A stretch of DNA of 64,000 nt from a virus (IMGVR_UViG_3300011339_000564:14318-78317); one strand, 5' to 3'; shown: positions 24,994 through 45,662, numbered from the stretch's first letter. Notes: generated by a model not told the origin, from the letters alone. Numbers and translations are program-made.

Positions 24994-25382
24994 TAGACTA
25001 TATACATGGTGGCGAGTATCTTAATGTTGTTAGTAACAAAGGTGCTCAGCCTTATATCAATATGAGTAGTACTCAGCCCATGATTGGTGCATTGTCTTAT
25101 GACCATAGTAGTCAACATATGAAAGTATATGATGGTAATGGGTGGATGACTATTGGCGGTGGCAGTGCTACTGTCAATCTAGCACCAAATGCTATCAATA
25201 TTTTAAAGTGGGCTGAACAGAAAATGCTAGAAGAAGCCGAGCGCAACAAATTAGCAGAAACAACCCCCGCTATTAGAGATTTGATGGACCAGATAAAAGA
25301 AAAAGAAGAACAGATAAAAATGGTCATGACTTTAATTAAAAGTACTGGTAATGATGCAATTAAACCCTCAATGGTACCCTAA
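24990..25382 (+). CDS. Hypothetical protein
   Basis: 130-aa ORF with ATGA/TAATG coupling on both sides. Confidence 0.55.
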   Translation: MIDYIHGGEYLNVVSNKGAQPYINMSSTQPMIGALSYDHSSQHMKVYDGNGWMTIGGGSATVNLAPNAINILKWAEQKMLEEAERNKLAETTPAIRDLMDQIKEKEEQIKMVMTLIKSTGNDAIKPSMVP

Positions 25383-26935
25383 TGGAACAAGATAATCTAT
25401 CAGCAAAACAAAACCCAGAGTGGGCATTGTTCTTACCCGCAGTTAGTAGTTTTTATATTAGTGGTTTGGGTAAGCAACGTAAAGGTGAGGAGTACTTTGA
25501 TAAGGCTCGTATCCCTACTCAGTTCAACGGTGATGTTGAGAAATTAAATTTCTTAAACAGTAGTGAAGGTCTCTATTATTATAAATGGGGCTTGTACAGT
25601 GCTGGTCACGCTAACTTAGATACTACTAAAGACGATGCTAGTGAATCAATCATTAGAGAACGTGAAGAAGGTACATTTATGTTGGGTGACAGTGGTGGAT
25701 TTCAGATTCTTAAAGGTCAATGGCCAGCAGACTGGAAAGATCCTAACTGCCCACGTGCTATGATTAAGCGTAAAGCTGTGTTGAATTGGATGGATACATA
25801 TATGGATTATGGTATGTGTTTAGATATCCCAAGTCAATCACTAACAACGTTTGGCATGAAAGATAAGAATGGTAATAGTCTGCATGGTATCAGTACTATT
25901 GAAGAAGCTATTACTGCCACTCACATTAACAACGAATACTTTATTAAGAATCGTAATGGGAAATGTAAGTTCTTAAATGTACTTCAAGGTCGTAATCATG
26001 GTCAGTCGGAAGACTGGTACAATGAAATGAAGAAGTACTGTGATCCAAACGTATATCCGGACAATCATTTCAATGGCTGGGCATTCGGTGGTCAGAACAA
26101 GATTGATGTACACTTGATGTTAACACGTATGGTTGATATTATCCATGATGGATTGTTGGTAGAAGGTAAACATGATTTGATTCATTGTTTGGGTACAAGT
26201 ATCTTAGAGTATGCGGTATTGTTTACTGATATTCAAAAAGCTATACGTAAATATCATAACTCAAAACTTCAGATTACATTTGACTGTGCTAGTCCATTTT
26301 ATAGTGCGGCTAAAGGATTAGCATATTTCAATACTAACATTGAGCATAATAAAAAATGGTCATACAGTATGGAAAAGACTGCTGAAAAGAAAAGTTATGC
26401 TAATGATACACGTAAATACCGTGATGCTGTGTTAGCAGAAGGCATCCATAAACTCTTTACAGATAGTCCAGTTACTGATAAACTACTACTTAAGGACATG
26501 TGTTATCGTGGTCAAGGGTTCATAGGACAACATGGTAAAGAAACTAAAACTAGTTGGGATACATTAAGTTACACATTGATTCAAAGTCATAATGTTTGGA
26601 TGCATATGAATGCAGTTCAAGAGGCTAATCGTCAATATGAAACAGGTATTACTCCTAAAATGCTTATTCATAAATTTGAAGGTAGTAAGTTTTTTGGTGA
26701 AATAGTTGATGAAATTTTCTCAAAGAAAACTAAACAAGAAGCTATTGACTTGATTGATTATCATCGTAGTTATTGGATGCAATTTCAATCAGGTAGTCAG
26801 GGTATTAGTGGTAAGCGTACAGTTAATGCTATGACAATGTTTGACCAATTATTTGAAGTAAATACAGATGAACCGGAAGTTGATGAAGTCATTGAGGACA
26901 GTGATGATGAAATTTTCAAAGTACTAGGAGAATAA
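25382..26935 (+). CDS. dpdA: TGT-superfamily transglycosylase, DpdA-like (DNA 7-deazaguanine insertion)
   Basis: GDSGGFQILKG and ITFDCASPF correspond to the two catalytic Asp motifs of tRNA-guanine transglycosylases (DSGGFQ, FDC). No CxCxxC zinc site was seen. 517 aa. Confidence 0.7.
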   Translation: MEQDNLSAKQNPEWALFLPAVSSFYISGLGKQRKGEEYFDKARIPTQFNGDVEKLNFLNSSEGLYYYKWGLYSAGHANLDTTKDDASESIIREREEGTFMLGDSGGFQILKGQWPADWKDPNCPRAMIKRKAVLNWMDTYMDYGMCLDIPSQSLTTFGMKDKNGNSLHGISTIEEAITATHINNEYFIKNRNGKCKFLNVLQGRNHGQSEDWYNEMKKYCDPNVYPDNHFNGWAFGGQNKIDVHLMLTRMVDIIHDGLLVEGKHDLIHCLGTSILEYAVLFTDIQKAIRKYHNSKLQITFDCASPFYSAAKGLAYFNTNIEHNKKWSYSMEKTAEKKSYANDTRKYRDAVLAEGIHKLFTDSPVTDKLLLKDMCYRGQGFIGQHGKETKTSWDTLSYTLIQSHNVWMHMNAVQEANRQYETGITPKMLIHKFEGSKFFGEIVDEIFSKKTKQEAIDLIDYHRSYWMQFQSGSQGISGKRTVNAMTMFDQLFEVNTDEPEVDEVIEDSDDEIFKVLGE

Positions 26936-26936
26936 T

Positions 26937-27146
26937 ATGCCATATAAAAGCCGTATTAAAACATTAGAAGAATCACATAGATTAGTAGAAAATCAACTTT
27001 TTCAATTAGAAAAATCAAATGGTGATCCTGAAAAAATTAAAAAGTTGAGAGAGGCTAAGGAAAAGTATTTCACTGAATTACGTGCAATGAATCGGGCTCA
27101 ATGGGATCATGACCATGAAACTGTAGATTTGAACGATGACCGATGA
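26937..27146 (+). CDS. Small coiled-coil protein (DUF465/YdcH-like, tentative)
   Basis: IKTLEESHRLVENQLFQLEK...IKKLREAKEKYFTELRAM. Confidence 0.4.
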   Translation: MPYKSRIKTLEESHRLVENQLFQLEKSNGDPEKIKKLREAKEKYFTELRAMNRAQWDHDHETVDLNDDR

Positions 27147-27711
27147 TATTAAATTAATTCCCAATATACTAAAACCAGAGGTAGAGTGGGATATTAATAA
27201 ACGAGTTATTGTTATTGATAACGCAATTAGCCCGGATATGTGTGATAGTATTATTAATTTTGCAACTGATAGAGTAGCAAAAGGAGTAAACAAATATCCA
27301 CATGTATTTGGTATTAGTTTTCATTCATGTCTACTTCAGTTAGAACATGAAGTTCATCAATTGTTGCAACCAATATGGCAACAATCAATTAATCAATTGG
27401 GATTTGATATTGATTTCGTTGAACCATATGAAGTTAAAAAGTATACTTCTAAAGATTTCTTTGGTAAACACGTAGATAATTACTACAGTTTGACCAAAGA
27501 CATAGACAGAAAGATAACAATGAGTGTACAATTGACTGACAAATCAGAATATACTGGTGGTGAGCTATTAGTGTTAGGTAGAGACATGGGTGCTAAGTCT
27601 AAAGGTAGCGTCACTGTGTTTCCTAGCATTTTTTCACATGAAGTAAAACCCATTACTTTTGGTACACGATGGTCATTAATAAGTTGGGCTTGGGGCCCTT
27701 ATTGGAAATAA
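27136..27711 (+). CDS. Fe(II)/2-oxoglutarate dioxygenase (prolyl 4-hydroxylase-like)
   Basis: GKHVDNY (HxD), FPSIFSHEV (distal His) and GTRWSLISW (Arg-x-Ser). Confidence 0.65.
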   Translation: MTDDIKLIPNILKPEVEWDINKRVIVIDNAISPDMCDSIINFATDRVAKGVNKYPHVFGISFHSCLLQLEHEVHQLLQPIWQQSINQLGFDIDFVEPYEVKKYTSKDFFGKHVDNYYSLTKDIDRKITMSVQLTDKSEYTGGELLVLGRDMGAKSKGSVTVFPSIFSHEVKPITFGTRWSLISWAWGPYWK

Positions 27712-27712
27712 C

Positions 27713-28165
27713 ATGGAACAACATATTCAAGCAGAAACAGAAAAACGAGTACGCATTAAGCATCATGCAAAGCGTATGATTTTCGTAACATTTCAAAAAG
27801 AGGGTATTCATATGTACCCGGCGGCGGCAACAGATCCAGCACTCGCAACGGGTGATGAATATGATGTTCGCTTTTTAGGAACTCCACATCGTCACATCTT
27901 TCACTTTAACGTGGCGATTGAAGTATTTCACAACGACAGGGATATTGAATTCATTCAATTTAAACGCTGGTTAGAGAATCTCTATAAAGGCGGTACACTT
28001 GAATTGAATTACAAGAGTTGTGAAATGATTAGTGATGACCTCTATGAAGTTATTGCTACTCGCTATCCCGATCGTAACATTGAGATTACCGTCAGTGAAG
28101 ATGGTGAGAACGGTGCTACGATTTATTACAACACAATTAGACCTTATCTTTCAACCGCTATTTAA
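27713..28165 (+). CDS. Hypothetical protein (weak resemblance to the PTPS/QueD T-fold)
   Basis: GTPHRHIFHFNVAIEV...DIEFIQFKRWLENL...LELNYKSCE is loosely reminiscent of the HGH..v.v.v / Df..lk / LdH..LN pattern. Not decisive. Confidence 0.3.
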   Translation: MEQHIQAETEKRVRIKHHAKRMIFVTFQKEGIHMYPAAATDPALATGDEYDVRFLGTPHRHIFHFNVAIEVFHNDRDIEFIQFKRWLENLYKGGTLELNYKSCEMISDDLYEVIATRYPDRNIEITVSEDGENGATIYYNTIRPYLSTAI

Positions 28166-28177
28166 AGGATTATCAAA

Positions 28178-28384
28178 ATGGCAAAACCAACATTTCAAAC
28201 TAACCCACGTGTTCATCAAATATTTGAGGACTTGGAAAAGTATCTTGAATTCTGTCAAGAGTATGGATATAAGTATAATGAGGCAGACCTCTATGACCAA
28301 CGCAGTTATGTGTTTCGTCAGTTTGCAAAATGCATGACAGGTAAGCCTGCAAAAAATCAATGGACAGAACACTCACGTCCATGA
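28178..28384 (+). CDS. Hypothetical protein
   Basis: 68-aa ORF with ATGA overlap to the next gene. Confidence 0.5.
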   Translation: MAKPTFQTNPRVHQIFEDLEKYLEFCQEYGYKYNEADLYDQRSYVFRQFAKCMTGKPAKNQWTEHSRP

Positions 28385-29133
28385 AGATAGTATTAGTAAC
28401 TGGTGGATTTGATCCATTACACAGCGGTCATATTGAATATTTCAAAGCCGCAAAACAACTCGGTGTCAAGTTAGTTGTCGGGGTAAACAGTGATGCATGG
28501 TTGGCTCGTAAAAAGGGCCAACCTTTTATGCCTAGCATTGAGCGTATGTCAATAATTGAAAATTTAAAAATGGTAGATCATTGTGTTATCTTTAATGATG
28601 ATGATGGTTCTAGTATTGAAGCTATCAATAATGTAAAGATGATGTATCCTGATTCTGAAATCATCTTTGCTAATGGAGGGGATAGAACATCAGCCAACAT
28701 TCCAGAAATGATCTTTGATGATGTAGAATTTGTTTTTGGTGTAGGTGGCGAGAATAAAATGAACAGTAGTTCATGGATACTACGTGAATGGAAACAACCT
28801 AAAACATTGCGGCAATGGGGTTATTATCGTATACTACATGATGTGCCCGGGACTAAAGTAAAAGAACTAACAGTAGAATCTGGAAAGAGTTTGAGTTTAC
28901 AACGACACAAACATAGAGCAGAATACTGGCATGTATCAGAGGGAAGATGTGCAGTAGAACAAAGAATGCCTAATGGCTATCAACTACCTACTCTAGAATT
29001 AGATACACTAAGTCAAATAGTTATTCCTATGAATGATTGGCATAGGCTATACAATCCGTTTGATGTCCCATGTAGAATTATTGAAGTTCAATATGGTACT
29101 ATGTGCGAAGAAGAAGATATAGAACGCAAATGA
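28381..29133 (+). CDS. Bifunctional-looking HxGH nucleotidyl(cytidylyl/adenylyl)transferase with a C-terminal cupin (type II mannose-6-P isomerase-like)
   Basis: Start at the ATG at 28381 (ATGA overlap). VTGGFDPLHSGHIEYF. C-terminal WGYYRIL...VKELTVESGKSLSLQRHKHRAEYWHVSEG. Confidence 0.7.
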   Translation: MKIVLVTGGFDPLHSGHIEYFKAAKQLGVKLVVGVNSDAWLARKKGQPFMPSIERMSIIENLKMVDHCVIFNDDDGSSIEAINNVKMMYPDSEIIFANGGDRTSANIPEMIFDDVEFVFGVGGENKMNSSSWILREWKQPKTLRQWGYYRILHDVPGTKVKELTVESGKSLSLQRHKHRAEYWHVSEGRCAVEQRMPNGYQLPTLELDTLSQIVIPMNDWHRLYNPFDVPCRIIEVQYGTMCEEEDIERK

Positions 29134-29858
29134 ATCGTGCTATCTGTGCCCCGTGCGGTGGTTTAATGAATCATGTCAGATGGTTAACATTAATGTCATC
29201 TGAATTTAAACTTCCTTTTAAAGGTAAGTTAGAATTTATGAAGGGTGTTTACGCTACCAACAGATCGCCATTTGTATGGTTAAAAAATGAATATTTTTAT
29301 AGGGAACGACCTTTTATAAAGGATTTGGTATTTGGAACTCATCACATTGAAGACTGCCTAACATTAGAAAGTCCTAGAAAAATTTTAATATTGGTTCCTT
29401 CCCCTGAATTAAGTTTCACCCATTATTTAAAGTTTAATCCATCATTGAATGGATTATTAAAACTACGAATCAATCAGCCCTACCTTACAGTAGAAGATAT
29501 AAAAAATCTGTATTTGCTTGGCATTTCGGATCACAATTACCGTAATAAGTTGCATGATACCTCAACTAATGATATAATTACTTCAAATATTGATAAATTA
29601 TATACTAATAGAGAATTAGATGTGGACACGTATCGTACTATAACTGATTTTTTTGAGATATCAAATGAATACAACTTAGCAAATGAAGTTCACAATATGT
29701 GGTTTGATTTACAAGAACATGGTAAAAAATTAATGCTAACACTCTCAGAAAACGCAAAAGATGTAGAGAATTATTGGAGATTGAATCATATTGAAGCAAT
29801 CAACCAATCTGATTATAATATTGCACTTAAACTTATTAAAGAGACATACGGAGAATAA
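29130..29858 (+). CDS. Hypothetical protein
   Basis: Start at the ATG at 29130 (ATGA overlap). 242 aa with no motif recognised. Confidence 0.5.
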   Translation: MNRAICAPCGGLMNHVRWLTLMSSEFKLPFKGKLEFMKGVYATNRSPFVWLKNEYFYRERPFIKDLVFGTHHIEDCLTLESPRKILILVPSPELSFTHYLKFNPSLNGLLKLRINQPYLTVEDIKNLYLLGISDHNYRNKLHDTSTNDIITSNIDKLYTNRELDVDTYRTITDFFEISNEYNLANEVHNMWFDLQEHGKKLMLTLSENAKDVENYWRLNHIEAINQSDYNIALKLIKETYGE

Positions 29859-31058
29859 ATGAAAACATTATATTATATGGGACTAGAACCCTACAAAGCA
29901 CGTTACACTCTACAGTTACAAGAGTGGAATGAACGGGTCTTTAAACAACGTGGTATTAACTATGTCATTGTACCCGGTGAAACACTAACTAATGACCAAG
30001 CTATTGTAACTGGTCAAGTACTAGATGCACATGGTCGTACATACTTTGGTATGAGTCAACTTATGAATCTAGTTAAGATGATGAAGCAAGGTGAAGTAGG
30101 TGCAGGTGATATCGTATACTTTGAAGATATGTTTCAGCCGGGCATTGAGTCATTGCCATACATTATGAAACAGATTCCGATCACAAGTCGTCCTAAGATT
30201 TTTGTTCGCTGTTTAGCACAAAGTATTGACCCAGATGACTTTGTTCATGTCTGGGGTATGAGTGAATTCATGGGTCACTATGAGAAGATGGTTGATTCGT
30301 TTGTTGATGGTGTGCTTGCTAGTAACGAAGAAATGGTAATGCACATGAAGATTGCGGGTTGGAAAGCTCCTATCTATAATATATCAGGTCTAGCATTTGG
30401 TAAAGATGAAGTTCGTAGTCGTATTAATAATAATATTAAACCCTTTGATGAACGTAAAATGCGTATTGCTTTTAGTGCAAGATGGGACCAAGAGAAACAA
30501 CCTGACTTCTACATGGATGTGATTGAAGAATTCTTTAATCGGTATGGTGAGAAGGATCGTCACGGTATATATCGTGGTGTAGAATTTTGTGTATTCAGTG
30601 GTAGCAAATTAAAAAGCAATAACGATAGTTATATGAAACGCACACACGACTTTCAAGGTCGTGGATTGTTGACAGTTTATGAAGACTTGGACAAGAATGC
30701 ATATTATGAATTATTAAATGATACCAGAGTATTGTTTAATTGTGCATTACAAGATTGGGTAAGTAATACAGTTAGTGAAGCAGATAGTTTGGGTTGTAAT
30801 GTGTTGTATCCAGCATATCGCAGTTTTCCAGAAACGTTTGCAAACGACTATACAAGAATGTATGCGCCCTGGTCAGTTGAAGATGCGGCAATAAAGTTGT
30901 ATAATATGTTACATCAGCCACATATAAATCAAGGAAAGATTAGTGATTGGACTGATGGTACTATTGATAGAATCTGTGATATCTTAGAAGGTAAGGGACA
31001 ACAATGGTTGCGTATGGACAAAGATTATCGCAAACATACTAGAGAAAATAAATACTAA
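29859..31058 (+). CDS. Putative GT-B fold glycosyltransferase (tentative)
   Basis: 399 aa. C-terminal half RIAFSARWDQEKQPDFYMDV...SEADSLGCNVLYP is GT-B-like. Length and the N-terminal pattern (MKTLYYMGLE...) recall T4 alpha-glucosyltransferase, but this is unverified. Confidence 0.35.
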   Translation: MKTLYYMGLEPYKARYTLQLQEWNERVFKQRGINYVIVPGETLTNDQAIVTGQVLDAHGRTYFGMSQLMNLVKMMKQGEVGAGDIVYFEDMFQPGIESLPYIMKQIPITSRPKIFVRCLAQSIDPDDFVHVWGMSEFMGHYEKMVDSFVDGVLASNEEMVMHMKIAGWKAPIYNISGLAFGKDEVRSRINNNIKPFDERKMRIAFSARWDQEKQPDFYMDVIEEFFNRYGEKDRHGIYRGVEFCVFSGSKLKSNNDSYMKRTHDFQGRGLLTVYEDLDKNAYYELLNDTRVLFNCALQDWVSNTVSEADSLGCNVLYPAYRSFPETFANDYTRMYAPWSVEDAAIKLYNMLHQPHINQGKISDWTDGTIDRICDILEGKGQQWLRMDKDYRKHTRENKY

Positions 31059-31070
31059 AAGGAGAAAATT

Positions 31071-31760
31071 ATGTTTGAAACAACTTATACAGATAATGTA
31101 AATTACCGTTCTGCTAGCGAAATTAACTCAGCAATGGGCCGTGTTTATGGTCACATGAGTCTAGCTGTCATTGTATCAATGTTAGTTAGCTATTTTGTAG
31201 GCTCTAGTCCAGAGTTACTACAATTCTTTTTTACAGGTGTATTGAAATGGATTGTGATCTTTGCCCCATTAGCGGCAATATTTGGTGTTGCTATGGTCCT
31301 AGGTAACAACCCTAGTAAGGGCGTAGCACAACTATGTTTACATGGATTTGCCGCACTAATGGGATTAAGTTTTGCTACAATCTTTGCTGTATTCAACATG
31401 GGTAGTATTGTAAGCTCATTTATGGGAGCAGCCATATTGTTTGGCGTTATGAGTGGCTATGGTTATTTTACTAAACAAAGTTTAGACAGTCTTGGCAAGT
31501 TTATGTTTGTTGGATTGATTGCAATAGTTATTGCCAGCATTGTCAATATCTTTATCGGCAGTACCGTAATGCAAATGGTTATCAGTGCGTTGGCTATCAT
31601 TATCTTTTTAGGATTGACTGCTTACGACACACAAAAGATTCGTGAAGAATTAAGTCTAGAAACCAGTGATAGTGCAGAAGTACGCGGTGCATTAACATTG
31701 TACATGGACTTCATTAATTTGTTTATTAACCTCTTACAACTATTTGGTGATAGGAAATAA
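31071..31760 (+). CDS. BAX inhibitor-1/YccA family membrane protein
   Basis: MGRVYGHMSLAVIVSML N-terminal pattern, about 7 hydrophobic helices, and C-terminal LTLYMDFINLFINLLQLFG. Confidence 0.8.
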   Translation: MFETTYTDNVNYRSASEINSAMGRVYGHMSLAVIVSMLVSYFVGSSPELLQFFFTGVLKWIVIFAPLAAIFGVAMVLGNNPSKGVAQLCLHGFAALMGLSFATIFAVFNMGSIVSSFMGAAILFGVMSGYGYFTKQSLDSLGKFMFVGLIAIVIASIVNIFIGSTVMQMVISALAIIIFLGLTAYDTQKIREELSLETSDSAEVRGALTLYMDFINLFINLLQLFGDRK

Positions 31761-31762
31761 TC

Positions 31763-32179
31763 ATGGCAACATGGATATTAAAAACACTGCACAAAAAGAG
31801 TGCATATGAAAGACAGCATTGGTACAAAGATGGTAAAGAAATCATCCGTGAAGAAGGTTACCGTTGGGGCACATTTTACTGTGAAAGTGATGAGAAACCT
31901 GATATTGACCTAACTAATGATGATGGTTATGAAATTGGTCAAGATGAGTATGAGTGGGAGCTTGATAGCCTCGATGACGGTTGTTGGGCTGATTGGGAAT
32001 TCCCCGATGACATGAGTGAAGAAGAACAAGAAGAAATTCAAAATGCTTGGGATGAAAATTATTTTGAAGGCATGGAAGAATTAGGTTGGAGTTGCGATGA
32101 TACAGATTATATCTTGCAAGGTCCGTTAGAATTATCAGATGAAGATGGTAATGTAGTAGGTTCTGGTGATACAGAATAA
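31763..32179 (+). CDS. Highly acidic hypothetical protein (paralog of 32575-33060)
   Basis: Shared blocks with the paralog: L.KKS, YRWG, DWEF.DD..E.EQ.EI, and a Trp/Asp-rich C-terminus. Confidence 0.6.
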   Translation: MATWILKTLHKKSAYERQHWYKDGKEIIREEGYRWGTFYCESDEKPDIDLTNDDGYEIGQDEYEWELDSLDDGCWADWEFPDDMSEEEQEEIQNAWDENYFEGMEELGWSCDDTDYILQGPLELSDEDGNVVGSGDTE

Positions 32180-32202
32180 GTTCATTTCAAATAGGAGAAA
32201 AC

Positions 32203-32397: not shown

Positions 32398-32398
32398 T

Positions 32399-32572: not shown

Positions 32573-32574
32573 TA

Positions 32575-33144: not shown

Positions 33145-33825
33145 ATGAGTTATAATAAAACAAAAACAGATCCAGAGTTGGGTCAACGAGTACACGAACA
33201 TCTAGTTAAGATGGGTGTTGAAACTCCCACTAATCCAAACAACTATGACCGTAAAGAAAAGATAGATCATATTGAAGCGCATTTTACACACATTATGCGT
33301 ATCTTGGGTCTTGACTTAACAGACGATAGTTTGATTGAAACCCCTAAGCGTGTTGCCAAGATGTATGTCAACGAAATCTTTTGGGGACTTGACTATGACG
33401 CATTCCCTAAATGTACAACAGTTGACAACAAGATGCAATACAACGAAATGGTTGTAGAGCGTAATGTTAACGTTCAATCTAACTGCGAACATCATTTTGT
33501 AGTCATCGATGGACTAGCTACTGTAGCTTATGTCCCTAAACAAAAAGTTCTAGGGCTTAGTAAGATAAACCGTATCGTAGAATATTTTAGCAAAAGGCCT
33601 CAAATCCAAGAGAGGTTAACAGAGCAAATTTTTCACACCTTACAGTTCATCCTTGAAACAGAAGATGTTGCAGTTATGATTGATGCACAACACTATTGTG
33701 TAAAATCACGTGGTGTAGAAGATACGGGATCTAGTACTGTTACTTGTCGTTTAGGTGGCGGTTTCAAATCAGATCCTGCGGCAAGACAAGAGTTTTTACA
33801 GATTGCTAACAAAGGTTGCAAATGA
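33145..33825 (+). CDS. folE: GTP cyclohydrolase I (FolE type 1)
   Basis: SNCEHHFVVIDG and RPQIQERLTEQI match the FolE active-site motifs. 226 aa. Confidence 0.9.
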   Translation: MSYNKTKTDPELGQRVHEHLVKMGVETPTNPNNYDRKEKIDHIEAHFTHIMRILGLDLTDDSLIETPKRVAKMYVNEIFWGLDYDAFPKCTTVDNKMQYNEMVVERNVNVQSNCEHHFVVIDGLATVAYVPKQKVLGLSKINRIVEYFSKRPQIQERLTEQIFHTLQFILETEDVAVMIDAQHYCVKSRGVEDTGSSTVTCRLGGGFKSDPAARQEFLQIANKGCK

Positions 33826-33953: not shown

Positions 33954-34171
33954 TGGCACTGATATATAAAGAAGTAGAAGTTGATATTGATCTGAGCGAT
34001 TTTGATACTGACGAATTAGTTGAAGAATTGGAAAACCGTGGCTCAGGTGTTATGGACTACGATGACGGCAAGGAAGTACTACAGTCGATTTACGAAAAAC
34101 GTAGACTTGGACAAGACTATCAGCAAGAACTAGACCAATTAATTTGGTTAGGATTAGGGAGAGTTGTATGA
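33953..34171 (+). CDS. Hypothetical acidic protein
   Basis: 72-aa ORF, translationally coupled. Confidence 0.5.
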
Positions 34172-34362
34172 TGAAATTTAAATTAGGTGACATGGTTAAA
34201 AAAGTGTCTGGTTCACAATGGCATGGAAAAGTAGTTGGTACATACTCAACTGAGTTAACGCCTGAAGGATATGCAGTTGAGAGTCATACAGAAAAAGGTT
34301 CTGTACAAATATACCCTGCAAAGGCTCTTGAGTTATGGGAGTTGAATAATGGGATTTCGTAA
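34168..34362 (+). CDS. dfrB: Type II (R67/DfrB-like) dihydrofolate reductase
   Basis: Start at the ATG at 34168 (ATGA overlap). [52 protein letters not shown] aligns along its length with R67 DHFR ([52 protein letters not shown]), including the VQIY pore motif. Confidence 0.8.
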
Positions 34363-34585
34363 ACAAATGGACTACAATGCAGTACATCATCAAATCTATA
34401 TGAGTGGTGTAGAATTACATAGTAATTACAATGATGGTTACAATCAGTTTGAAATCAAAAAAGATTTACATCGTATCAAGTGGTTGTTAGATGAGATTAT
34501 GGCTGACAGCCCTACATTTGCAGGGGAAGACGAATTCTTAAAAGAACATGAACAAACTAAGATGTGGAGAACTCTTTCAAAATGA
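34349..34585 (+). CDS. Hypothetical protein
   Basis: 78-aa ORF, overlap-coupled on both sides. Confidence 0.5.
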
Positions 34586-35055
34586 TTTTCAATCACATTA
34601 AAAAACTCAAACAAGATGGAAAGAAGATAGGTATTACTTTTAGTACATTCGACCTACTTCACGCAGGTCATATTGCTATGTTAAGTGAAGCAAAAAATCA
34701 TTGTGATTATCTTATTTGTGGATTACAAACTGACCCCACGATTGATCGACCTGAAACAAAGAATAAACCCATTCAAAGTATCGTAGAACGACAGATTCAA
34801 CTTGCGGCTTGCCGCTATGTCGATGAAGTTGTTGTTTATCAAACTGAACAGGACCTTATTGACTTGTTACTTATTCTACCACTAGATGTTCGCATTTTGG
34901 GTGTAGAGTATGCAGATAAAGACTTTACCGGAAGATATGAAGGTAGTGAGCGTGGCATTGAAATTGTATTCAATGGTCGTGACCACAGTTTCAGCAGTAG
35001 TAGTTTACGAAAACGGGTAGCTGATGCCCAGATTATTAACGTTCTTAATAAATAA
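34582..35055 (+). CDS. HxGH cytidylyltransferase-family protein (TagD/RfaE-domain II-like)
   Basis: Start at the ATG at 34582 (ATGA overlap). GITFSTFDLLHAGHIAMLSEAK...YVDEVVVY. Confidence 0.7.
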   Translation: MIFNHIKKLKQDGKKIGITFSTFDLLHAGHIAMLSEAKNHCDYLICGLQTDPTIDRPETKNKPIQSIVERQIQLAACRYVDEVVVYQTEQDLIDLLLILPLDVRILGVEYADKDFTGRYEGSERGIEIVFNGRDHSFSSSSLRKRVADAQIINVLNK

Positions 35056-35083
35056 CTATAGCGGTCTTTGGACATCATCCCGC

Positions 35084-35112
35084 TTTACAAATTCTGCTGC
35101 CTATGCTATAAT
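35084..35112 (+). promoter_or_regulatory. sigma70-type promoter TTTACA-17-TGcTATAAT
   Basis: TTTACA at 35084-35089 and TATAAT at 35107-35112 with an extended TG. AGGAG RBS before the ATG at 35130. Confidence 0.55.
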
Positions 35113-35129
35113 CAACATAGGAGAAATTC

Positions 35130-35612
35130 ATGGCAAACAAAAAATTCTTTTCAACAAAGACATACAGACAAATAGGTCCTGTCGCTTATCGTCAATGGCG
35201 TGCTGACAGTCATTGTAACTTAATTCATGGCTATGCTATGAGTTTTCACTTTGAGTTTGAGGCTGATACGTTAGACGCACGTAACTGGGTAACTGACTTC
35301 GGTGGATTACGACCTCTCAAAGATAAACTAGAAGAATGGTTTGACCATACATTACTAGTTGCACAAGATGACCCAATGCGTGAACATCTATTAGAACTAG
35401 GTCGTTTAAAGCTAGCTAAAATTACAGAAGTAGAACGTACTGGGTGTGAAGGTATTTCTGACTTTTTATATGAATACATTAACACAATTTTTTTGCCTAA
35501 CTGCGGTAGTGAAGAAGCTAAACGTGTATGGTGCTGTAGAGTAGAAGTCCGCGAGACTGATAGTAACATGGCAGGACGTAGTGGTCATAGGGAAGATAGA
35601 GAGTTTGAATAA
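35130..35612 (+). CDS. queD: 6-carboxy-5,6,7,8-tetrahydropterin synthase (QueD/PTPS family)
   Basis: HCNLIHGYAMSFHFEFE, DFGGLRPLKDKLEEWFDHTLL and the small T-fold size (160 aa). Confidence 0.7.
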   Translation: MANKKFFSTKTYRQIGPVAYRQWRADSHCNLIHGYAMSFHFEFEADTLDARNWVTDFGGLRPLKDKLEEWFDHTLLVAQDDPMREHLLELGRLKLAKITEVERTGCEGISDFLYEYINTIFLPNCGSEEAKRVWCCRVEVRETDSNMAGRSGHREDREFE

Positions 35613-36235
35613 TGTTAGAAACAATTTGCGATACATTAGTTGAAGCATATAAACGCAACTGGATTACCAGTCGTGATGGCAATGTAAGTATTCGTCATCA
35701 TGATCGGGATCATTTTTACATCACACCCAGTGGTGTGCGTAAGCAGACAATGCAACCGGATCAGTTTAAGAAGATTCGTATTGTTGGTAGTATGTTATGG
35801 GAAGAGCAACCATACACTGATATCAGTGCTAATCTTAAACCGTCAGGTGAGCTACCACTACACCTCGGACTACAGCGAAAAATGGGACAGCACAATAATG
35901 ATGTTAGAGTAGTAGTACATTTACATCCCACATACTGTGTTGCCGCTATGCACCGCGGCATTGAGTTGAGTAGTCTGGCTAATGACTTTCCTGAACTCAG
36001 TCGCTATACTAGCGTGGCACCCAATGTGGGTGATGTGCCTCCTATTAGCCAGGAACTTGCAGACCGCTGTCATGAAAATTTGGGACTAGATAAGAATGGT
36101 ACTATTGCTTATGACATTGTAGGTATCAAAGGTCACGGTGTGGTCGCTATAGATACTAGCCCATGGAGGGCTTTTGAACATATTGAACGATTAGAACATA
36201 TTTGTCAAATCGTATTAGCATCAGGGAAATATTAA
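35612..36235 (+). CDS. Class II aldolase/adducin-domain protein (epimerase/aldolase/dehydratase family)
   Basis: SRDGNVSIRH, YITPSGV, and VVVHLHPTY metal-binding His motifs. Confidence 0.7.
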   Translation: MLETICDTLVEAYKRNWITSRDGNVSIRHHDRDHFYITPSGVRKQTMQPDQFKKIRIVGSMLWEEQPYTDISANLKPSGELPLHLGLQRKMGQHNNDVRVVVHLHPTYCVAAMHRGIELSSLANDFPELSRYTSVAPNVGDVPPISQELADRCHENLGLDKNGTIAYDIVGIKGHGVVAIDTSPWRAFEHIERLEHICQIVLASGKY

Positions 36236-36236
36236 A

Positions 36237-36650
36237 ATGTTAGACTGTATAATTATAGGTGATAGCATTGCAGTTGGTACAGCTATGGCTCGTCCAGAGT
36301 GTGTAAGTTATTCAAAAGGCGGCTGGAACAGTTGGCAATGGAACAAGGATTACTTAGCCAAAGCCTCTGCTCAACCTGCTCAAACTATAATCATTAGTCT
36401 TGGAGCCAACGACCACAAGGGTGTTAAGACTGAGCTTGAGTTACGTAAAATGCGAGAAGCAGTTAAGGGCCAGCGTGTGTTTTGGATCGATCCAGGTCAA
36501 GACCGTAAACCTATTCCACACGATGCAATTATTCGCATTGCTAAAGAATATGGTGATACAGTATTGCCTAGGCCAAAGAATCATATGAGTGCTGACGGAG
36601 TACATCCAACTGGTCGAGGTTATAAGATTTTAGGAGAGATGGCAAAATGA
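36237..36650 (+). CDS. SGNH/GDSL-family hydrolase
   Basis: IIIGDSIAVG (block I, GDS), SLGANDH (block III) and DGVHP (block V). Confidence 0.6.
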   Translation: MLDCIIIGDSIAVGTAMARPECVSYSKGGWNSWQWNKDYLAKASAQPAQTIIISLGANDHKGVKTELELRKMREAVKGQRVFWIDPGQDRKPIPHDAIIRIAKEYGDTVLPRPKNHMSADGVHPTGRGYKILGEMAK

Positions 36651-37282
36651 GTTATATTGTAGGATCATTACCTCCTATTAAGTGTTGGATAAAACGTGAA
36701 TTTCTTTACAACTTTGAAAAAGGTCACGGAGAATTAGAACCTGCCATATGGGTAAGTCTTAAAGCATTACGTGGACAAGTGTTTCGTATTGAATCATTAT
36801 TACCCAATTACGGAGCACTCTACGATAAACTGCCCATTCATGCCTATGTATGGCAAGACAACTACACAGGCAATCTACCTATAGATACTTTACAACTCTG
36901 GGACTGCATGGGTTATCGCTTTACTATCATTGAAAAAATAGGTTTACGTAATCTAGGTGTTAAGTTCTTGGGCAAAGATAAAGAATGGCATCACGGAACT
37001 TATTTATTTACAGTAGATTTTTGTGCTGATGGAATGGATGTAGATACAGGTTTTACTGAAGTAGCAGAAGAACACAAGTCGTTTAATTTTATTAGATTAG
37101 AAAATGGACAGTTTGCTTGTCAACCCAATAATCGATGTTTGTGGTACGACCAAAGTTTGATTTCAGGTACAGTGAAATTTCCAGACTTTAAAGCCGCACA
37201 GACCATATTTACAGTAGATGGTACTCGCAAGTGGAGTGCAGGAGATGATTGGTTTTATTCTATTGAGGAAAAAAATGAATAG
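36647..37282 (+). CDS. Hypothetical protein
   Basis: 211-aa ORF with ATGA coupling. Confidence 0.55.
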   Translation: MSYIVGSLPPIKCWIKREFLYNFEKGHGELEPAIWVSLKALRGQVFRIESLLPNYGALYDKLPIHAYVWQDNYTGNLPIDTLQLWDCMGYRFTIIEKIGLRNLGVKFLGKDKEWHHGTYLFTVDFCADGMDVDTGFTEVAEEHKSFNFIRLENGQFACQPNNRCLWYDQSLISGTVKFPDFKAAQTIFTVDGTRKWSAGDDWFYSIEEKNE

Positions 37283-37466
37283 TTTAGAAAAAATATGGGC
37301 TAGAGCAACTGGTCATTTAATGGGTAACACTGATGATGATAGACCCGATGTACCTATTCTTACTTTACGAGAAGCAAGAATTGCATTGTTCCTAAAAACT
37401 TTCTGGATTATACTACATGTGATAACATGTTGTTTCATCATAGCAAATACATTACGTCATTGGTAA
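37275..37466 (+). CDS. Small membrane protein
   Basis: Start at the ATG at 37275. C-terminal TM segment FLKTFWIILHVITCCFIIANTL. Confidence 0.45.
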   Translation: MNSLEKIWARATGHLMGNTDDDRPDVPILTLREARIALFLKTFWIILHVITCCFIIANTLRHW

Positions 37467-37469
37467 AAT

Positions 37470-37667
37470 ATGAACAAAAAAATTACAGAACTATGGGAAC
37501 AGGCCGCTCAACGAGATGACTTACTAGACGAAAAACGGTATGAGCATTTTGCTGAATTATTAATTAGAGATTGTGCAAAACAAGTTAATCATCTGGCTAA
37601 ACAAGGTGGCGGAACTTGGGGCGAAGTCATTCTAGAAAACTACAATATAAGTGTATATAAAAAATGA
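37470..37667 (+). CDS. Member of the small 'FAELIVREC' paralog family
   Basis: MNKKITELWEQAA...HFAELLIRDCAKQV. Divergent C-terminus. Confidence 0.55.
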   Translation: MNKKITELWEQAAQRDDLLDEKRYEHFAELLIRDCAKQVNHLAKQGGGTWGEVILENYNISVYKK

Positions 37668-38512
37668 GTCATTTAAAAGTATCAGAATTATTTTACAGTA
37701 TCCAGGGAGAAGGTCGCTATATGGGAGTGCCAAGTATTTTCCTAAGAACATATGGATGCAATTTTACATGCGGTGGCTTCGGTATGCCTAAGGGAGAAAT
37801 GAGTAATGAGAGAGATGTTATCGCAATTAAAGCAGAAGATTATACAGATTATAAATCCTTACCACTTGTCAGTACTGGATGTGATAGTTACGCATCTTGG
37901 GACCCTCGCTTTAAACATCTTAGTCCTGTTATCTCTACCGATTCTATTGCTGACAGTATTATGGATATACTTCCTCACAAGCGTTGGATGGATGAACATC
38001 TTGTTATTACAGGTGGTGAACCTTTGCTTGGATGGCAAAGAGCGTATCCAGACTTACTTTCAAACGAGAAAATGAGAGCATTGAAAGAGATTACATTTGA
38101 AACTAATGGCACACAAGAACTAAGTAAAGACCTTACTAACTATCTTCATCAATGGAAGATCAGCCGTGAAAATAACGCACTTACATTCAGTGTGAGTCCT
38201 AAACTTAGTATCAGCGGTGAGAAGTGGGAAGAAGCAATATGTCCACAAGTTGTTCGTCAATATGAAAGTGTTGGCTTTGTATATCTTAAATTTGTTATTG
38301 CTACTAAAGAAGATGCGATTGAGGCAGATAAAGCAGTTAAAGAATTTCGTACAGCTGGATTCAGAGGTCCAATATACTTCATGCCATGCGGTGGTGTAGA
38401 AAGTATCTATAATTTAAATGCTAGAAATGTTGCTATTGAAGCAATGAATCGTGGCTATCGCTATAGTGATAGATTACAGGTGCCTCTATTTAAAAATGAA
38501 TGGGGGACATAA
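37664..38512 (+). CDS. queE: 7-carboxy-7-deazaguanine synthase (QueE, radical SAM) with atypical Cys spacing
   Basis: ELFYSIQGEGRYMGVPSIFLRTYGCNFTC is the QueE N-terminal signature. The third Cys of CxxxCxxC is missing locally, and the next Cys (GCDSYASWDP) lies 36 residues later. VITGGEPLL. Confidence 0.75.
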   Translation: MSHLKVSELFYSIQGEGRYMGVPSIFLRTYGCNFTCGGFGMPKGEMSNERDVIAIKAEDYTDYKSLPLVSTGCDSYASWDPRFKHLSPVISTDSIADSIMDILPHKRWMDEHLVITGGEPLLGWQRAYPDLLSNEKMRALKEITFETNGTQELSKDLTNYLHQWKISRENNALTFSVSPKLSISGEKWEEAICPQVVRQYESVGFVYLKFVIATKEDAIEADKAVKEFRTAGFRGPIYFMPCGGVESIYNLNARNVAIEAMNRGYRYSDRLQVPLFKNEWGT

Positions 38513-38715
38513 TGACAGAAACAAAAAAACGCACAGTGGTAAGGATGCTTACCTATAGATTGACAGCATGGTTATTCACAATCTTTTGGACTTATCTGTT
38601 TACAGGTAATCTAGGTAACTCAGCCGGCTTTGCTACTGCATTACATATATTATTAAGTATAGACTATTACATTCACGAACGCATTTGGTTGAGAATCAAA
38701 TGGGGTAAGGAATAA
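38512..38715 (+). CDS. DUF2061-like small membrane protein
   Basis: Start at the ATG at 38512 (TAATG). MLTYRLTAW...TG...DYYIHERIW pattern. Confidence 0.45.
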   Translation: MTETKKRTVVRMLTYRLTAWLFTIFWTYLFTGNLGNSAGFATALHILLSIDYYIHERIWLRIKWGKE

Positions 38716-38716
38716 T

Positions 38717-38941
38717 ATGCCATTAGATCAAGTCCAATCATATGATTACTTTTATGACAAATTGATAGGTACTGAACTTAAGTTTACTTGGCTACCCCAA
38801 ACTTGTGACATATCAGGTAAGCGTATTTGGTTAAAGTATGGGTATAGGATGACTAGGATGATTACTGGACCGGGCACACCTGTCTTTGAGTATAGATGGC
38901 ACGATAAGAATACCCATATTATATGGAAACTAAAAAGGTGA
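38717..38941 (+). CDS. Hypothetical protein
   Basis: 74-aa ORF. Confidence 0.5.
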   Translation: MPLDQVQSYDYFYDKLIGTELKFTWLPQTCDISGKRIWLKYGYRMTRMITGPGTPVFEYRWHDKNTHIIWKLKR

Positions 38942-38945
38942 ATAT

Positions 38946-39125
38946 ATGTATGAATTAAGATATCTTGTCCGAAACGGTTGGGATGGACCTGAACAAGTGT
39001 TACAATATAGAACTCAACATGAAGTAACAGACTATAGTGGCACAGATCCTAAAACAGGTGGATTCATTAGAAAAATAGAATGGACTGAATGGAAGTATGT
39101 CCCCACCGTAGATGAAACAAAATGA
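38946..39125 (+). CDS. Small hypothetical protein (59 aa, below the track cutoff)
   Basis: MYELRYLVRNGWDGPEQVLQYRTQHE... The stop overlaps the ATG at 39122 (ATGA). Confidence 0.45.
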   Translation: MYELRYLVRNGWDGPEQVLQYRTQHEVTDYSGTDPKTGGFIRKIEWTEWKYVPTVDETK

Positions 39126-40471
39126 AATTATACGATAAACGAATTGCTTTTTTGATTAGTGACCAACATTTTATACCGCATGGTGGTATAGGTAGTTTTG
39201 CTAAAGGCTTTACTGAGATGTGTGGTCGTATCGGGTGGAAGGTTGATATTATATTAGACAAAGCACCTACTAATTTATTCAGTGATTTAATTATTAGTCT
39301 AGGTGCTAACATTGTTTACCCTGATGAACCACTACGATACAGTGACCATACTGCTACGTTTGCATTTAGCGATACTATCAACTTTGAAAAGATTATCAAC
39401 TTCCGTAAAGCAATATTAAAAGCATTTGAAACAAATGTATACGACATGATTGTGTGTAATACACAAGAGGCAATGACTGCTAGTTATGCCATGACGGTTA
39501 ACAAGTATATACCTGTTGTATTCTATACTCATTTGCACAGTATGATTTTTCGTGAAAGTCAAGGTAGTGATGTATTTTTAGACAGCTATCACAATTTCTA
39601 TAACAAACATATGGAGTTTACTGATATCATTATAGGCACACAAAGTCAAAAGAACATTGACGAACTAACTAAGTTTGGTGCAACTAACTGTCAGTTATTG
39701 CGTATGCCAATGAGTGAACGTGGTCTATTAGAACGATACAATGGATCTAAGAAGGGTGTACTATTCATTGGACGATGGGAAGAAGGTAAGAACCCTGAAG
39801 CATATATTCGTGTAATGAAAGAATGTAAATTACCATGTAAGGTAATGACAAATAGTAACGGTGCAAAAAAGTTTGAGAAGGCATTCAGTGACGCAGGTAT
39901 TACTGATTATGAAATCAAAGCCGGTATTACTGGACAAGAGAAAGTAGATTTTGTTCGTGGTGCTAATGTATTCTTTATGCCCAGCCTTCGTGAAAACTAT
40001 CCATTTGCATTTTTAGAATGTCTTGGTCATATGCCTTGTGTTGTGCTTGATAATCAAGATTGGTCAGACAACTTTGAGCGAGAATACTATCATCAAGTTT
40101 CAATTGGTTCAGCAGCCGACATGATTAAAACATTGTATGGCACAAATCAATTATCTTCAGTATTAGACTATGTGAAACAATTAGATGATGAGGTAGCTCA
40201 AGGTTGGATTACATTCTTAGATAATTTTGCAGGCAAGCGTAGCAACACAAATGCCGCAAAGATTAATACATATGATACAGTTAAGTATAGTGATTATATC
40301 AAGGATTTAAATCGTACACATTTAGCACGTGAGGACTTTGAAAGCGTACTCGCAAACAAATATAAGTTTTTAAATGTCTGCTACACAGATAGTGACACTT
40401 ACCTAAGCAAAGACCCAACATATAAACCAGTCGAGGAAGAAACAGCATTAAGTCTGTTTGAAGGATTATGA
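39122..40471 (+). CDS. GT-B (GT4-like) glycosyltransferase
   Basis: HGGIGSFAKG N-terminal motif, FIGRWEEGKNP, and RENYPFAFLECLGHMPCVV (the E-x7-E region). Confidence 0.7.
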   Translation: MKLYDKRIAFLISDQHFIPHGGIGSFAKGFTEMCGRIGWKVDIILDKAPTNLFSDLIISLGANIVYPDEPLRYSDHTATFAFSDTINFEKIINFRKAILKAFETNVYDMIVCNTQEAMTASYAMTVNKYIPVVFYTHLHSMIFRESQGSDVFLDSYHNFYNKHMEFTDIIIGTQSQKNIDELTKFGATNCQLLRMPMSERGLLERYNGSKKGVLFIGRWEEGKNPEAYIRVMKECKLPCKVMTNSNGAKKFEKAFSDAGITDYEIKAGITGQEKVDFVRGANVFFMPSLRENYPFAFLECLGHMPCVVLDNQDWSDNFEREYYHQVSIGSAADMIKTLYGTNQLSSVLDYVKQLDDEVAQGWITFLDNFAGKRSNTNAAKINTYDTVKYSDYIKDLNRTHLAREDFESVLANKYKFLNVCYTDSDTYLSKDPTYKPVEEETALSLFEGL

Positions 40472-41298
40472 AAAAAGTTTTAATTACAGGTAACTCAGGT
40501 TACATTGGCAGTCATCTAAGTAAGATGTTAATGGATACAATGAAATATGAAGTTCATGGATTAGATATCCGTGACCCGCAATATGCATTGAATAGATTTT
40601 ATCGTCAAGATATCAATAGACAATTTTCATTAGATGAAGAATTTGATGCAGTCATTCACTTAGCCGCATTAGTTAATGTAGGTGAAAGTGAACAGATACC
40701 CATTCAATATTATATCACTAACTTAAATGGCACAATGAATGTCATTAACAAAGTAAAGACTAAAAACTTTATATTTGCAAGTACGGGTGCCGCAGTTGGT
40801 TGCGAAAGTGCTTATGGTATCAGTAAACGTGCCGCAGAAGATGTAGTCAAAGAATACTGCACACATCACAATAAAAAAGATTATACTATCTTTAGATTTT
40901 ATAATGTGATTGGTACTACCGTTGTTCCACCTACAAATCCAGATGGATTAATGTATAACTTAATGAAAGCACGTGAAACAGGTGAGTTTACTATCTTCGG
41001 TAATGACTATGACGTTAGTGATGACGGTACATGTGTGCGTGATTATGTACATGTGAATGAAATTTGTGACTCATTAGCACAGGCTATCGAAAAGCCTAGT
41101 AACCAAATTGAATCATTGGGTCACGGAGTGGGATGGACAGTTAAAGAGATTGTCGATGAGTTTCAAAAAGTCAATCACGTTGACTTTGAAGTAAAATACG
41201 GCCCAAGAAGAAAGGGTGATCTTGCTAGTTCTGTACTAGAAGATGTTTCACCCTATATGCGTAATCTATATACTATGGATGAGTTGCTTAAGGTTTAA
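40468..41298 (+). CDS. NAD-dependent sugar epimerase/dehydratase (GalE-like SDR)
   Basis: VLITGNSGYIGSHL Rossmann motif and the YGISKRAAE catalytic YxxxK. Confidence 0.8.
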   Translation: MKKVLITGNSGYIGSHLSKMLMDTMKYEVHGLDIRDPQYALNRFYRQDINRQFSLDEEFDAVIHLAALVNVGESEQIPIQYYITNLNGTMNVINKVKTKNFIFASTGAAVGCESAYGISKRAAEDVVKEYCTHHNKKDYTIFRFYNVIGTTVVPPTNPDGLMYNLMKARETGEFTIFGNDYDVSDDGTCVRDYVHVNEICDSLAQAIEKPSNQIESLGHGVGWTVKEIVDEFQKVNHVDFEVKYGPRRKGDLASSVLEDVSPYMRNLYTMDELLKV

Positions 41299-45644: not shown

Positions 45645-45662
45645 AATGGTATCCGTAAATAG

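Follow-up and report, generated by a model that had tools for sequence, protein, structure and literature searches.

What allows a phage to carry genes for the synthesis of 7-deazaguanine and its insertion into DNA without queC, and why should those genes be interleaved with sugar-nucleotide and glycosyltransferase genes? The question was raised by an earlier note on the viral sequence IMGVR_UViG_3300011339_000564:14318-78317, in which the region at 25382-41298 is the locus concerned. The window, as we call the whole stretch of 64,000 nt that was analysed, is part of a genome of roughly 350 kb; all coordinates refer to it, and gene absences hold within those 64 kb. One of the main ways in which phages withstand restriction enzymes is to modify their DNA with 7-deazaguanines. 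We conclude, with a probability of about 0.7, that the locus is a QueC-independent, DpdL-type 7-deazaguanine DNA-modification module just downstream of the polymerase, with all of its enzymatic steps predicted from homology, fold and gene context. The QueC-less pathway is known, and the transglycosylase defines a new subfamily, a very large one, within a known family. A glycosylated deazaguanine as the final product is plausible.

All genes from 17.7 to 41.3 kb are on the + strand, where those listed in the earlier note were found at the places claimed. The genes that carry the argument are the following.

21475-24183, + strand: family B DNA polymerase (PolB), with Pfam DNA_pol_B and exonuclease domains and 49% identity to the Phosso polymerase; it anchors the block of PolB, clamp and DpdA-like genes.
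24265-24993, + strand: sliding-clamp-like protein, homologous to the Phosso 'DNA polymerase III sliding clamp beta' and to PA5oct EST35_0314.
25382-26935, + strand: DpdA-like protein of tRNA-guanine transglycosylase (TGT) fold, 517 aa, predicted from motifs, predicted fold and context to be a DNA guanine transglycosylase.
27713-28165, + strand: DpdL, a QueD-like T-fold protein, predicted from homology and a signature motif to be a 7-carboxy-7-deazaguanine decarboxylase.
29859-31058, + strand: GT-B (GT4-like) glycosyltransferase, here called X, assigned by predicted structure; conserved partner of DpdA and DpdL.
33145-33825, + strand: GTP cyclohydrolase I, FolE (PF01227, E 1.9e-61).
35130-35612, + strand: QueD, 6-carboxytetrahydropterin synthase (PTPS) family (PF01242, E 3e-15; 71% identity to ACP17 QueD).
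37664-38512, + strand: QueE-like radical SAM enzyme, a candidate 7-carboxy-7-deazaguanine synthase (best matches to QueE NCBIfam models; N-terminal FYSIQGEG motif).
39122-40471, + strand: probable second glycosyltransferase, 449 aa, here called GT449 (weak GT1-type matches to PF13692 and PF00534, E 5e-4, below cut-offs).
40468-41298, + strand: GalE-like NAD-dependent sugar epimerase of the short-chain dehydrogenase/reductase (SDR) type, short form, 276 aa (PF01370, E 4.6e-32; best PDB relatives UDP-glucose 4-epimerases, E 1e-33).

The absence of QueC from the window was borne out. A phmmer search with E. coli QueC and phage 9g Gat-QueC gave no match in the 549 six-frame open reading frames (ORFs) of the window, Pfam scans of 60 of the longer window ORFs found no QueC domain (PF06508), and no QueC was detected in a six-frame scan of 286,281 of the 286,783 bases of Pseudomonas phage PA5oct. 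One ORF, at 19968-20540, was considered as a Gat-QueC relic and dismissed as noise (match to 9g Gat-QueC at E 0.076, no Pfam hit). The absence was no anomaly, however, since the DpdL-type configuration without queC has already been described (Cui et al, 2023). The gene at 27713, listed in the earlier note as a possible extra T-fold protein, does encode a T-fold protein, and its identity had been missed: it is a clear DpdL homologue, with tblastn identities of 68% to the protein of phage Phosso, 57% to ACP17 ASD50405, 57% to PA5oct EST35_0318 and 35% to phiST gp040. In place of the CxxxHGH motif it carries the DpdL signature LxxxHRHxF, here LGTPHRHIF at residues 55-63, and H59, H61 and F63 were invariant in an alignment with the DpdL of ACP17, phiST, PA5oct and other phages.

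DpdL has been proposed to be a decarboxylase that converts 7-carboxy-7-deazaguanine (CDG) to 7-deazaguanine, and it is characteristically found where a phage encodes DpdA, FolE, QueD and QueE but lacks QueC (Cui et al, 2023; PMC10516641). In phiST, the one DpdL phage that has been measured, 2'-deoxy-7-deazaguanosine (dDG) replaces all dG, and CDG was undetected (Cui et al, 2023; PMC10516641). Hence no QueC would be required in such a pathway, because DpdL would remove the carboxyl group. The co-occurrence of DpdL with DpdA, FolE, QueD and QueE, without QueC, was seen in the window, in the whole PA5oct genome and in the published listing for ACP17, which gives DpdA2, FolE, QueD and QueE and no QueC (Hutinet et al, 2019).

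FolE, QueD and QueE, all named in the earlier note, were present, as judged by PF01227, by membership of the PTPS family and by QueE homology, respectively. The QueD sequence has the motif CNLIHGY (CxxxHGY), with Tyr in the position of the second His, in common with the QueD proteins of phiST and ACP17. The same variant was observed in a series of DpdL-type phages (window 35130-35612, L008:18158-18637, L007:7778-8254, L006:5340-5969 and PA5oct EST35_0258), and PA5oct encodes two QueD proteins, the canonical EST35_0254 (HGH) and the HGY variant. It may be that the CxxxHGY form denotes a T-fold enzyme whose function has shifted and which co-evolves with DpdL. The protein at 37664-38512 is homologous to the annotated QueE proteins of PA5oct (E 3e-29) and phage 9g (E 1e-9), and this phage QueE homology, together with the N-terminal motif, supports a weak assignment of QueE function.

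The protein at 25382-26935 was described in the earlier note as DpdA-like, with both catalytic Asp motifs and no zinc site, and this description held. The motifs MLGDSGGFQ and ITFDCASP are present (LTDSGGFQ and MFDCV in E. coli Tgt), and the CxCxxC zinc motif is absent. By sequence the 517-aa protein had no match in Pfam, PHROGs, NCBIfam or the PDB, and phmmer searches of the window with phage 9g DpdA and E. coli Tgt gave nothing significant. Its AlphaFold2 model (mean pLDDT 87.9) was compared with the PDB using Foldseek, and the top 26 matches were all tRNA-guanine transglycosylases of bacterial, archaeal and eukaryotic origin (probability 1.0, E about 1e-6). From 1.84 billion cluster representatives, a profile search recovered 1,110 members of the family. 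Across 88 representatives, 23-42% identical to the window protein, S73, D103, S104, G106, P150, H268 and D301 were invariant. The two catalytic residues, D103 and D301, were likewise invariant in the family alignment of 132 close to mid-distance homologues, which included the PA5oct branch at about 35% identity.

The position of this family among known transglycosylases was assessed with hhalign. Against ACP17 ASD50403, a published DpdA2, the family profile aligned over 182 columns at 90% probability (E 1.6e-6), pairing DSGGFQ with DSGGLQ, HFLGIG with HLLGVG and SFDAAS with SYDS. Against the single sequence of phiST DpdA3 (CGPG_00065) the probability was 32% and the catalytic motifs were unaligned; the single sequence of E. 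coli Tgt gave 20%, and neither of these two comparisons was informative. A tblastn search with the 517-aa protein recovered no phage of the DpdA2 subfamily, which includes Vibrio phage nt-1 and ACP17. The protein is best treated as a DpdA-like TGT-fold enzyme of a separate subfamily that is distantly related to DpdA2, with guanine exchange as its predicted activity. The TGT/DpdA family is thereby extended by a large, sequence-invisible subfamily of >1,100 clusters at 50% identity, with thousands of metagenomic copies, whose contigs, where long, measure about 150-390 kb.

These copies also bear on the origin of the window. It is a piece of an abundant uncultured jumbo myovirus, because its PolB (21475-24183) is 44-49% identical to the polymerases of Sinorhizobium phage Phosso, Agrobacterium phage Atu_ph07 and the RaK2/K64-1 group, because no DNA-level match to the 16-kb region was obtained by megablast among 50,697 phage genomes, and because thousands of metagenomic sequences, some on contigs as long as 359 kb, encode homologues of the 517-aa protein. 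The G+C content is about 37%.

The claim that the que genes are interleaved with sugar genes was examined by mapping every window gene onto 80 IMG/VR loci, which were retrieved with DpdL as the query and whose DpdL is 69-93% identical to that of the window. Upstream counts are based on the 57 loci with at least 6 kb upstream, and downstream counts on the 32 loci whose sequence extends 9 kb or more beyond DpdL. The interleaved genes are the following.

27136-27711, + strand: 2-oxoglutarate (2OG)-Fe(II) oxygenase, accessory (PF13640, E 1.9e-12; phrog_61).
28360-29133, + strand: fusion of a cytidylyltransferase-like nucleotidyltransferase with a mannose-6-phosphate-isomerase-type cupin, variable (PF01467 and PF01050; closest PDB relatives cytidylyltransferases).
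31071-31760, + strand: full-length Bax inhibitor-1 (Bax1-I) family membrane protein in the middle of the cluster (PF01027, E 5.5e-53).
34564-35055, + strand: RfaE-domain-II/TagD-like nucleotidyltransferase (PF01467; TIGR02199, E 5e-23, below cut-off), with ethanolamine-phosphate and glycerol-3-phosphate cytidylyltransferases as PDB relatives.
35612-36235, + strand: class II aldolase/epimerase, accessory (PF00596, E 4e-30; no PDB match at E 1e-5).
36237-36650, + strand: partial GDSL/SGNH-like hydrolase, accessory, a weak assignment (PF13472, E 1.6e-7, just below cut-off).

PolB, the clamp and the DpdA-like gene were each present in 57/57 loci. Downstream, X and FolE were each found in 31/32 loci, QueD in 28/32, the SDR epimerase in 22/32 and QueE in 21/32, the last count being limited by the available flank. 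Lower frequencies were obtained for the small nucleotidyltransferase at 34564 (17/32), the nucleotidyltransferase-cupin fusion (9/32), the class II aldolase (5/32), Bax1-I (3/32) and a 251-aa ORF at 29103 (2/32). Neither the SGNH hydrolase nor the 2OG oxygenase occurred in any of the 32 well-covered loci, the latter being present in 6 of all 80. Sugar-related genes are thus present as claimed. Of the interleaved genes listed in the earlier note, about half are accessory, namely the 2OG oxygenase, the aldolase, the SGNH hydrolase and the nucleotidyltransferase-cupin fusion, because they are absent or variable in close relatives; Bax1-I and the ORF at 29103 count as accessory as well. About half of the interleaving is accessory gene flux, and X and the SDR epimerase belong to the conserved core. 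The 2OG oxygenase was also considered as a core hydroxylase creating a sugar acceptor, and was rejected on its absence from 32/32 well-covered relatives. A homologous arrangement in stripped-down form was seen in a 359-kb relative, with the order PolB, clamp, DpdA-like, DpdL, nucleotidyltransferase-cupin, X, FolE, nucleotidyltransferase, QueD, QueE, GT449 and epimerase. The relatives fall into two sub-clades. In the first (L064, L065, L075, L080, L088 and L092 among those listed) QueE is followed by a small ORF, GT449 and the epimerase; in the second (L018, L023, L032, L053 and L060 among those listed) the SDR epimerase immediately follows X, and FolE is about 34% identical in most. As for the Bax1-I gene, an 'FtsH-interacting integral membrane protein' is annotated in PA5oct, elsewhere in the genome.

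The earlier note had counted two or three glycosyltransferases. That at 29859 was upheld by its predicted structure. No family match to X was found by sequence in Pfam, PHROGs or NCBIfam, and Pfam GT1 models were reached faintly by some X homologues. The model (pLDDT 75.7) has a GT-B fold, and its top Foldseek matches were the GT4-type retaining enzymes PimB', BshA and MshA (probability 1.0) and a chlorovirus (PBCV) glycosyltransferase; against viral models, ACP17 ASD50404 was the second-best match. An EX7E-type motif in the C-terminal domain, D299-x7-E307, is invariant. The gene at 39122 gave weaker results, with the sub-threshold GT1 matches listed above, no PDB sequence match, and an hhalign alignment to X of just 36 columns. 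It follows QueE in 7 of the 10 loci with enough sequence, and is a possible second transferase of the window-like sub-clade. The GalE-like epimerase at 40468 was confirmed, and both sub-clades retain an SDR epimerase, which also occurs in contigs L096 and L097; PA5oct has a fragment of one.

Homologues of X were located beside the deazaguanine genes in distant phages. In ACP17 the homologue (ASD50404, E 1e-14) lies between DpdA2 and DpdL, in PA5oct (EST35_0317) between the DpdA-like gene and DpdL, in Phosso (annotated "glycosyltransferase") directly after DpdL, and in Xanthomonas phage BUDD (USV40851) directly before DpdA2; in ACP17 and in Synechococcus phage BUCT-ZZ01 X is contiguous with DpdA2 and DpdL. 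Two divergent metagenomic contigs of 184 and 362 kb have the order DpdA-like, X, DpdL, SDR epimerase and QueE. The X family (E 1e-6 or better) occurred in 23 of 50,697 phage records, 18 of which also encode DpdL, as raw record counts uncorrected for phylogeny; these 18 records fall into six lineages (ACP17, Phosso, the PA5oct group, BUDD with X1, BCSR5, and BUCT-ZZ01). Where positions were compared, X and DpdL lay within about 3 kb of each other. Some phages have DpdL and lack X, among them the phiST group, RHph_I1_18 and Ahp1. An X gene that nearly always accompanies DpdL, and a DpdL gene that also occurs without X, are the combination to be expected if X acts at a step beyond the DpdL product. 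No report linking a glycosyltransferase to DpdA, DpdA2 or deazaguanine was found in the literature, and so far as that search reached, the conserved association of a glycosyltransferase and an epimerase with DpdL and DpdA is previously unreported.

The DNA of PA5oct resists five restriction enzymes in a pattern pointing to modified G, and the phage is itself restricted by END nucleases, which recognise modified G. That it encodes a system for making and incorporating deazaguanine had already been pointed out (Iyer et al, 2021). The modified G of PA5oct gives independent support to the view that phages with DpdA-like, X and DpdL genes modify G.

The pathway that we propose is as follows. On the basis of homology, FolE, QueD and QueE would convert GTP to CDG, and DpdL would remove the carboxyl group of CDG to give 7-deazaguanine. 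The TGT-fold enzyme, judging from its fold, invariant catalytic residues and context, would then exchange guanine in the phage DNA for 7-deazaguanine after replication, and the modified DNA would be shielded from restriction enzymes. The next step is speculative, and we put it at a little below even odds: X would transfer a nucleotide-activated sugar, supplied by way of the GalE-like epimerase, onto the installed deazaguanine or a derivative of it. In the window-like sub-clade, nucleotidyltransferases related to TagD, to ethanolamine-phosphate cytidylyltransferase (ECT) and to RfaE-II may join the sugar step, and GT449 may act as a second transferase. The full proposal, in which X uses a sugar supplied by the SDR epimerase to glycosylate the 7-deazaguanine or derivative installed by the DpdA-like enzyme, and some clades add nucleotidyltransferases and a second glycosyltransferase, is a tentative one that we regard as somewhat more doubtful still. 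A sugar-decorated deazapurine had been one of three outcomes offered in the earlier note; it now has comparative support, in that distantly related phages retain the GT-B glycosyltransferase and an SDR epimerase together with DpdA and DpdL, and goes no further than plausible. The idea has become sharper and testable because the cultured phages PA5oct, ACP17 and Phosso carry the trio of DpdA or DpdA-like, X and DpdL genes.

To our knowledge, eight deazaguanine derivatives occur in DNA, none of them with a sugar. If the proposal is true, a glycosylated purine would be known for the first time from natural DNA, perhaps formed by an unusual C- or N-glycosylation of the deazapurine; the base would be common among abundant uncultured jumbo phages, with PA5oct and ACP17 among its carriers. 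A real sugar step would define a new class of purine DNA hypermodification, and would explain both the modified G of PA5oct, a therapeutic candidate, and the failed reconstitution of dDG from ACP17 dpdA and dpdL. Failing such a step, the locus is no more than a DpdL-type system of the ordinary kind to which accessory sugar genes have been added.

Several observations weigh against this interpretation of the locus. 7-Deazaguanine has no hydroxyl group and offers no obvious acceptor to a GT4-type transferase; the acceptor would have to be a carbon, the exocyclic nitrogen, or a hydroxylated intermediate made by a further enzyme. No glycosylated deazaguanine was found in the literature. No TGT sequence model was reached by the DpdA-like protein of the window, and PF01702 was touched by just 3 of the 88 family members, at E 0.0045 or weaker. 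In the QueD protein, HGY replaces the Zn-binding HGH of canonical QueD, and the QueE protein reached its best QueE models at E 1e-12 and about 48 bits, against cut-offs of 200-300. The window covers 64 kb of the genome, so that a queC gene or a pyrimidine-hydroxylating enzyme could lie elsewhere, and common descent, as opposed to a common function, could account for part of the gene-order conservation around the polymerase. Finally, ACP17 dpdA and dpdL gave no dDG in E. coli, a failure that the authors thought possibly due to "other unknown enzymes" (PMC10516641). The X gene sits between dpdA and dpdL in ACP17 and was left out of this co-expression.

Among other explanations, the one that survives best keeps the same base pathway with plain dDG as its end product; the sugar genes would act on the host envelope, teichoic acid, lipopolysaccharide (LPS) or virion proteins, and would share the early/replication region with the modification genes. 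It draws on the synthesis of dDG by phiST, which has DpdL and no X homologue, and on the missing hydroxyl acceptor of 7-deazaguanine. Many of the window's sugar genes, moreover, vary between close relatives like accessory metabolic genes, and the PHROG into which the 2OG oxygenase falls carries the label of an auxiliary metabolic gene. This explanation nevertheless fits poorly with the near-confinement of X to DpdL phages (18/23), its contiguity with DpdA2 and DpdL in ACP17 and BUCT-ZZ01 and its retention in 31/32 relatives: an envelope enzyme is not expected to track DpdL across phages of Pseudomonas, Acidovorax, Sinorhizobium, Xanthomonas, Burkholderia and Synechococcus hosts. We consider it rather unlikely.

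A pathway that stops at CDG, with the deoxynucleoside dCDG as the DNA base, was the first outcome offered in the earlier note. Consistent with it are the absence of QueC from the window and PA5oct, the natural occurrence of dCDG at a low level in Sulfolobus virus STSV-2 (SVST-2 in the paper), and a carboxylate that is in principle esterifiable. The presence of DpdL argues the other way; the gene was found in 80/80 related loci, which were themselves retrieved with DpdL as the query, and the only measured DpdL phage, phiST, had no detected CDG and dDG in place of all G. Because DpdL accounts for the missing queC step, a stop at CDG is improbable.

Equally improbable, in our judgement, is that deazaguanine enters the DNA as a nucleotide before replication, the TGT-like protein acting on another substrate such as tRNA. 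The PA5oct cluster includes a phosphoribosyltransferase and the phage also encodes a MazG, a weak MazG match adjoins the cluster in contig L097, and the full replacement of G by dDG in phiST would suit such a route. Against this, no phosphoribosyltransferase was found in the Pfam-scanned window ORFs or in the close relatives, every deazaguanine-modified virus studied encodes DpdA, an argument for post-replicative insertion has been published, and the TGT-like gene stands beside the polymerase and clamp in 57/57 loci. The PA5oct enzyme, EST35_0321 (L001:15946-16380), is a type I phosphoribosyltransferase encoded between the epimerase fragment and QueE, with no homologue detected in the window clade; its position suggests that the deazapurine base may be salvaged to a nucleotide.

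The remaining outcome of the earlier note, a non-canonical amidation, concerns the sole PP-loop protein of the window, which was correctly recognised there as TilS-like.

20549-21163, + strand: TilS-like PP-loop protein, 204 aa, consisting of a stand-alone TilS N-terminal domain (TilS N-domain equivalog, 126 bits against a cut-off of 93.6).

That this protein and the class I glutamine amidotransferase at 17744-18319 replace QueC and convert CDG to 7-amido-7-deazaguanine (ADG) or preQ0 is very improbable, and we rejected it: QueC is itself a PP-loop ATPase and both genes lie upstream of the cluster, but the protein passes the TilS N-domain cut-off, its gene is variable (present in just 19/57 related loci), its PA5oct homologue adjoins a tRNA cluster 50 kb from the que genes, and DpdL already covers the missing step. 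That homologue, EST35_0433 (E 2.6e-48), has three genes annotated as tRNA-Met (AUG codon) in the adjacent cluster, which suggests lysidine formation on a phage tRNA-Ile2; no tRNA genes were found in the window.

Further features of the window lie outside the module. The block 41300-45644 is the sole minus-strand stretch, and the GC skew switches sign there; an Fe/Mn superoxide dismutase (minus strand) and a UvdE UV-damage endonuclease are encoded within 42620-46749. At 858-3919 a DnaJ-like co-chaperone precedes a 753-aa ClpB/ClpA-type double AAA+ ATPase, and a DnaJ and ClpA pair is also present in PA5oct. A 427-aa protein at 5204-6487, far upstream of the cluster, has at its N-terminus the third cytidylyltransferase-like domain of the window (weak, E 1.2e-4). 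The 1317-aa ORF at 9842-13795 gave a sub-threshold DUF2076 match as its sole family signal. A ferritin-like protein lies directly before a second radical SAM enzyme (425 aa, not QueE-like) at 13805-15515, and a TctC-like (tripartite tricarboxylate transporter receptor) protein and the class I glutamine amidotransferase/peptidase C26 occupy 16758-18319, auxiliary genes that are unusual in a phage.

We return to the DpdL-type module and its likeness to known systems. The cluster of phiST (DpdA3, DpdL, FolE, QueD and QueE; PMC10516641) resembles that of the window in lacking QueC, in its LxxxHRHxF DpdL and CxxxHGY QueD, and in adjoining the replicative polymerase; it differs in its transglycosylase, a DpdA3 (hhalign 32%), and in having neither X nor an epimerase. 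ACP17 (DpdA2 ASD50403, glycosyltransferase ASD50404, DpdL ASD50405 and QueE ASD50406) is similar to the window in its QueD (71% identity), FolE (60%) and DpdL (57%), in its X-family glycosyltransferase, in the absence of QueC, and in the position of the genes just downstream of a family B polymerase. Its DpdA2, in contrast, has 424 aa against 517 aa in the window protein, with no BLAST match between the two, and its cluster contains no nucleotidyltransferases and no second glycosyltransferase. PA5oct, a Pseudomonas jumbo phage (Wroclawvirus), shares with the window a DpdA-like protein (35% identity), X, DpdL, an epimerase (as a fragment) and QueE (EST35_0316 to 0322), in the same order after PolB; like the window it has no QueC, and its restriction resistance indicates modified G. 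Unlike the window, it has FolE and QueD about 55 kb away and an added phosphoribosyltransferase, and is without nucleotidyltransferases, GT449 and a full-length epimerase.

The nearest parallels to X are found in pyrimidine modification. The alpha- and beta-glucosyltransferases of T4, which act on 5-hydroxymethylcytosine (5hmC), and the arabinosyltransferases of RB69 and DLP3, which act on 5-hydroxycytosine, are GT-B/GT4-like as X is, and the RB69 and DLP3 enzymes have the same PDB neighbours as X (BshA, MshA, PimA and sucrose-phosphate synthase; PMC13326640). In these systems phage-encoded sugar activation, by an isomerase and nucleotidyltransferases, accompanies the transferases. Their acceptor, however, is a hydroxylated pyrimidine made by a thymidylate-synthase homologue, and no such gene was seen in the Pfam-scanned window ORFs; unlike in the pyrimidine systems, the glycosyltransferase of the window tracks the deazaguanine genes.

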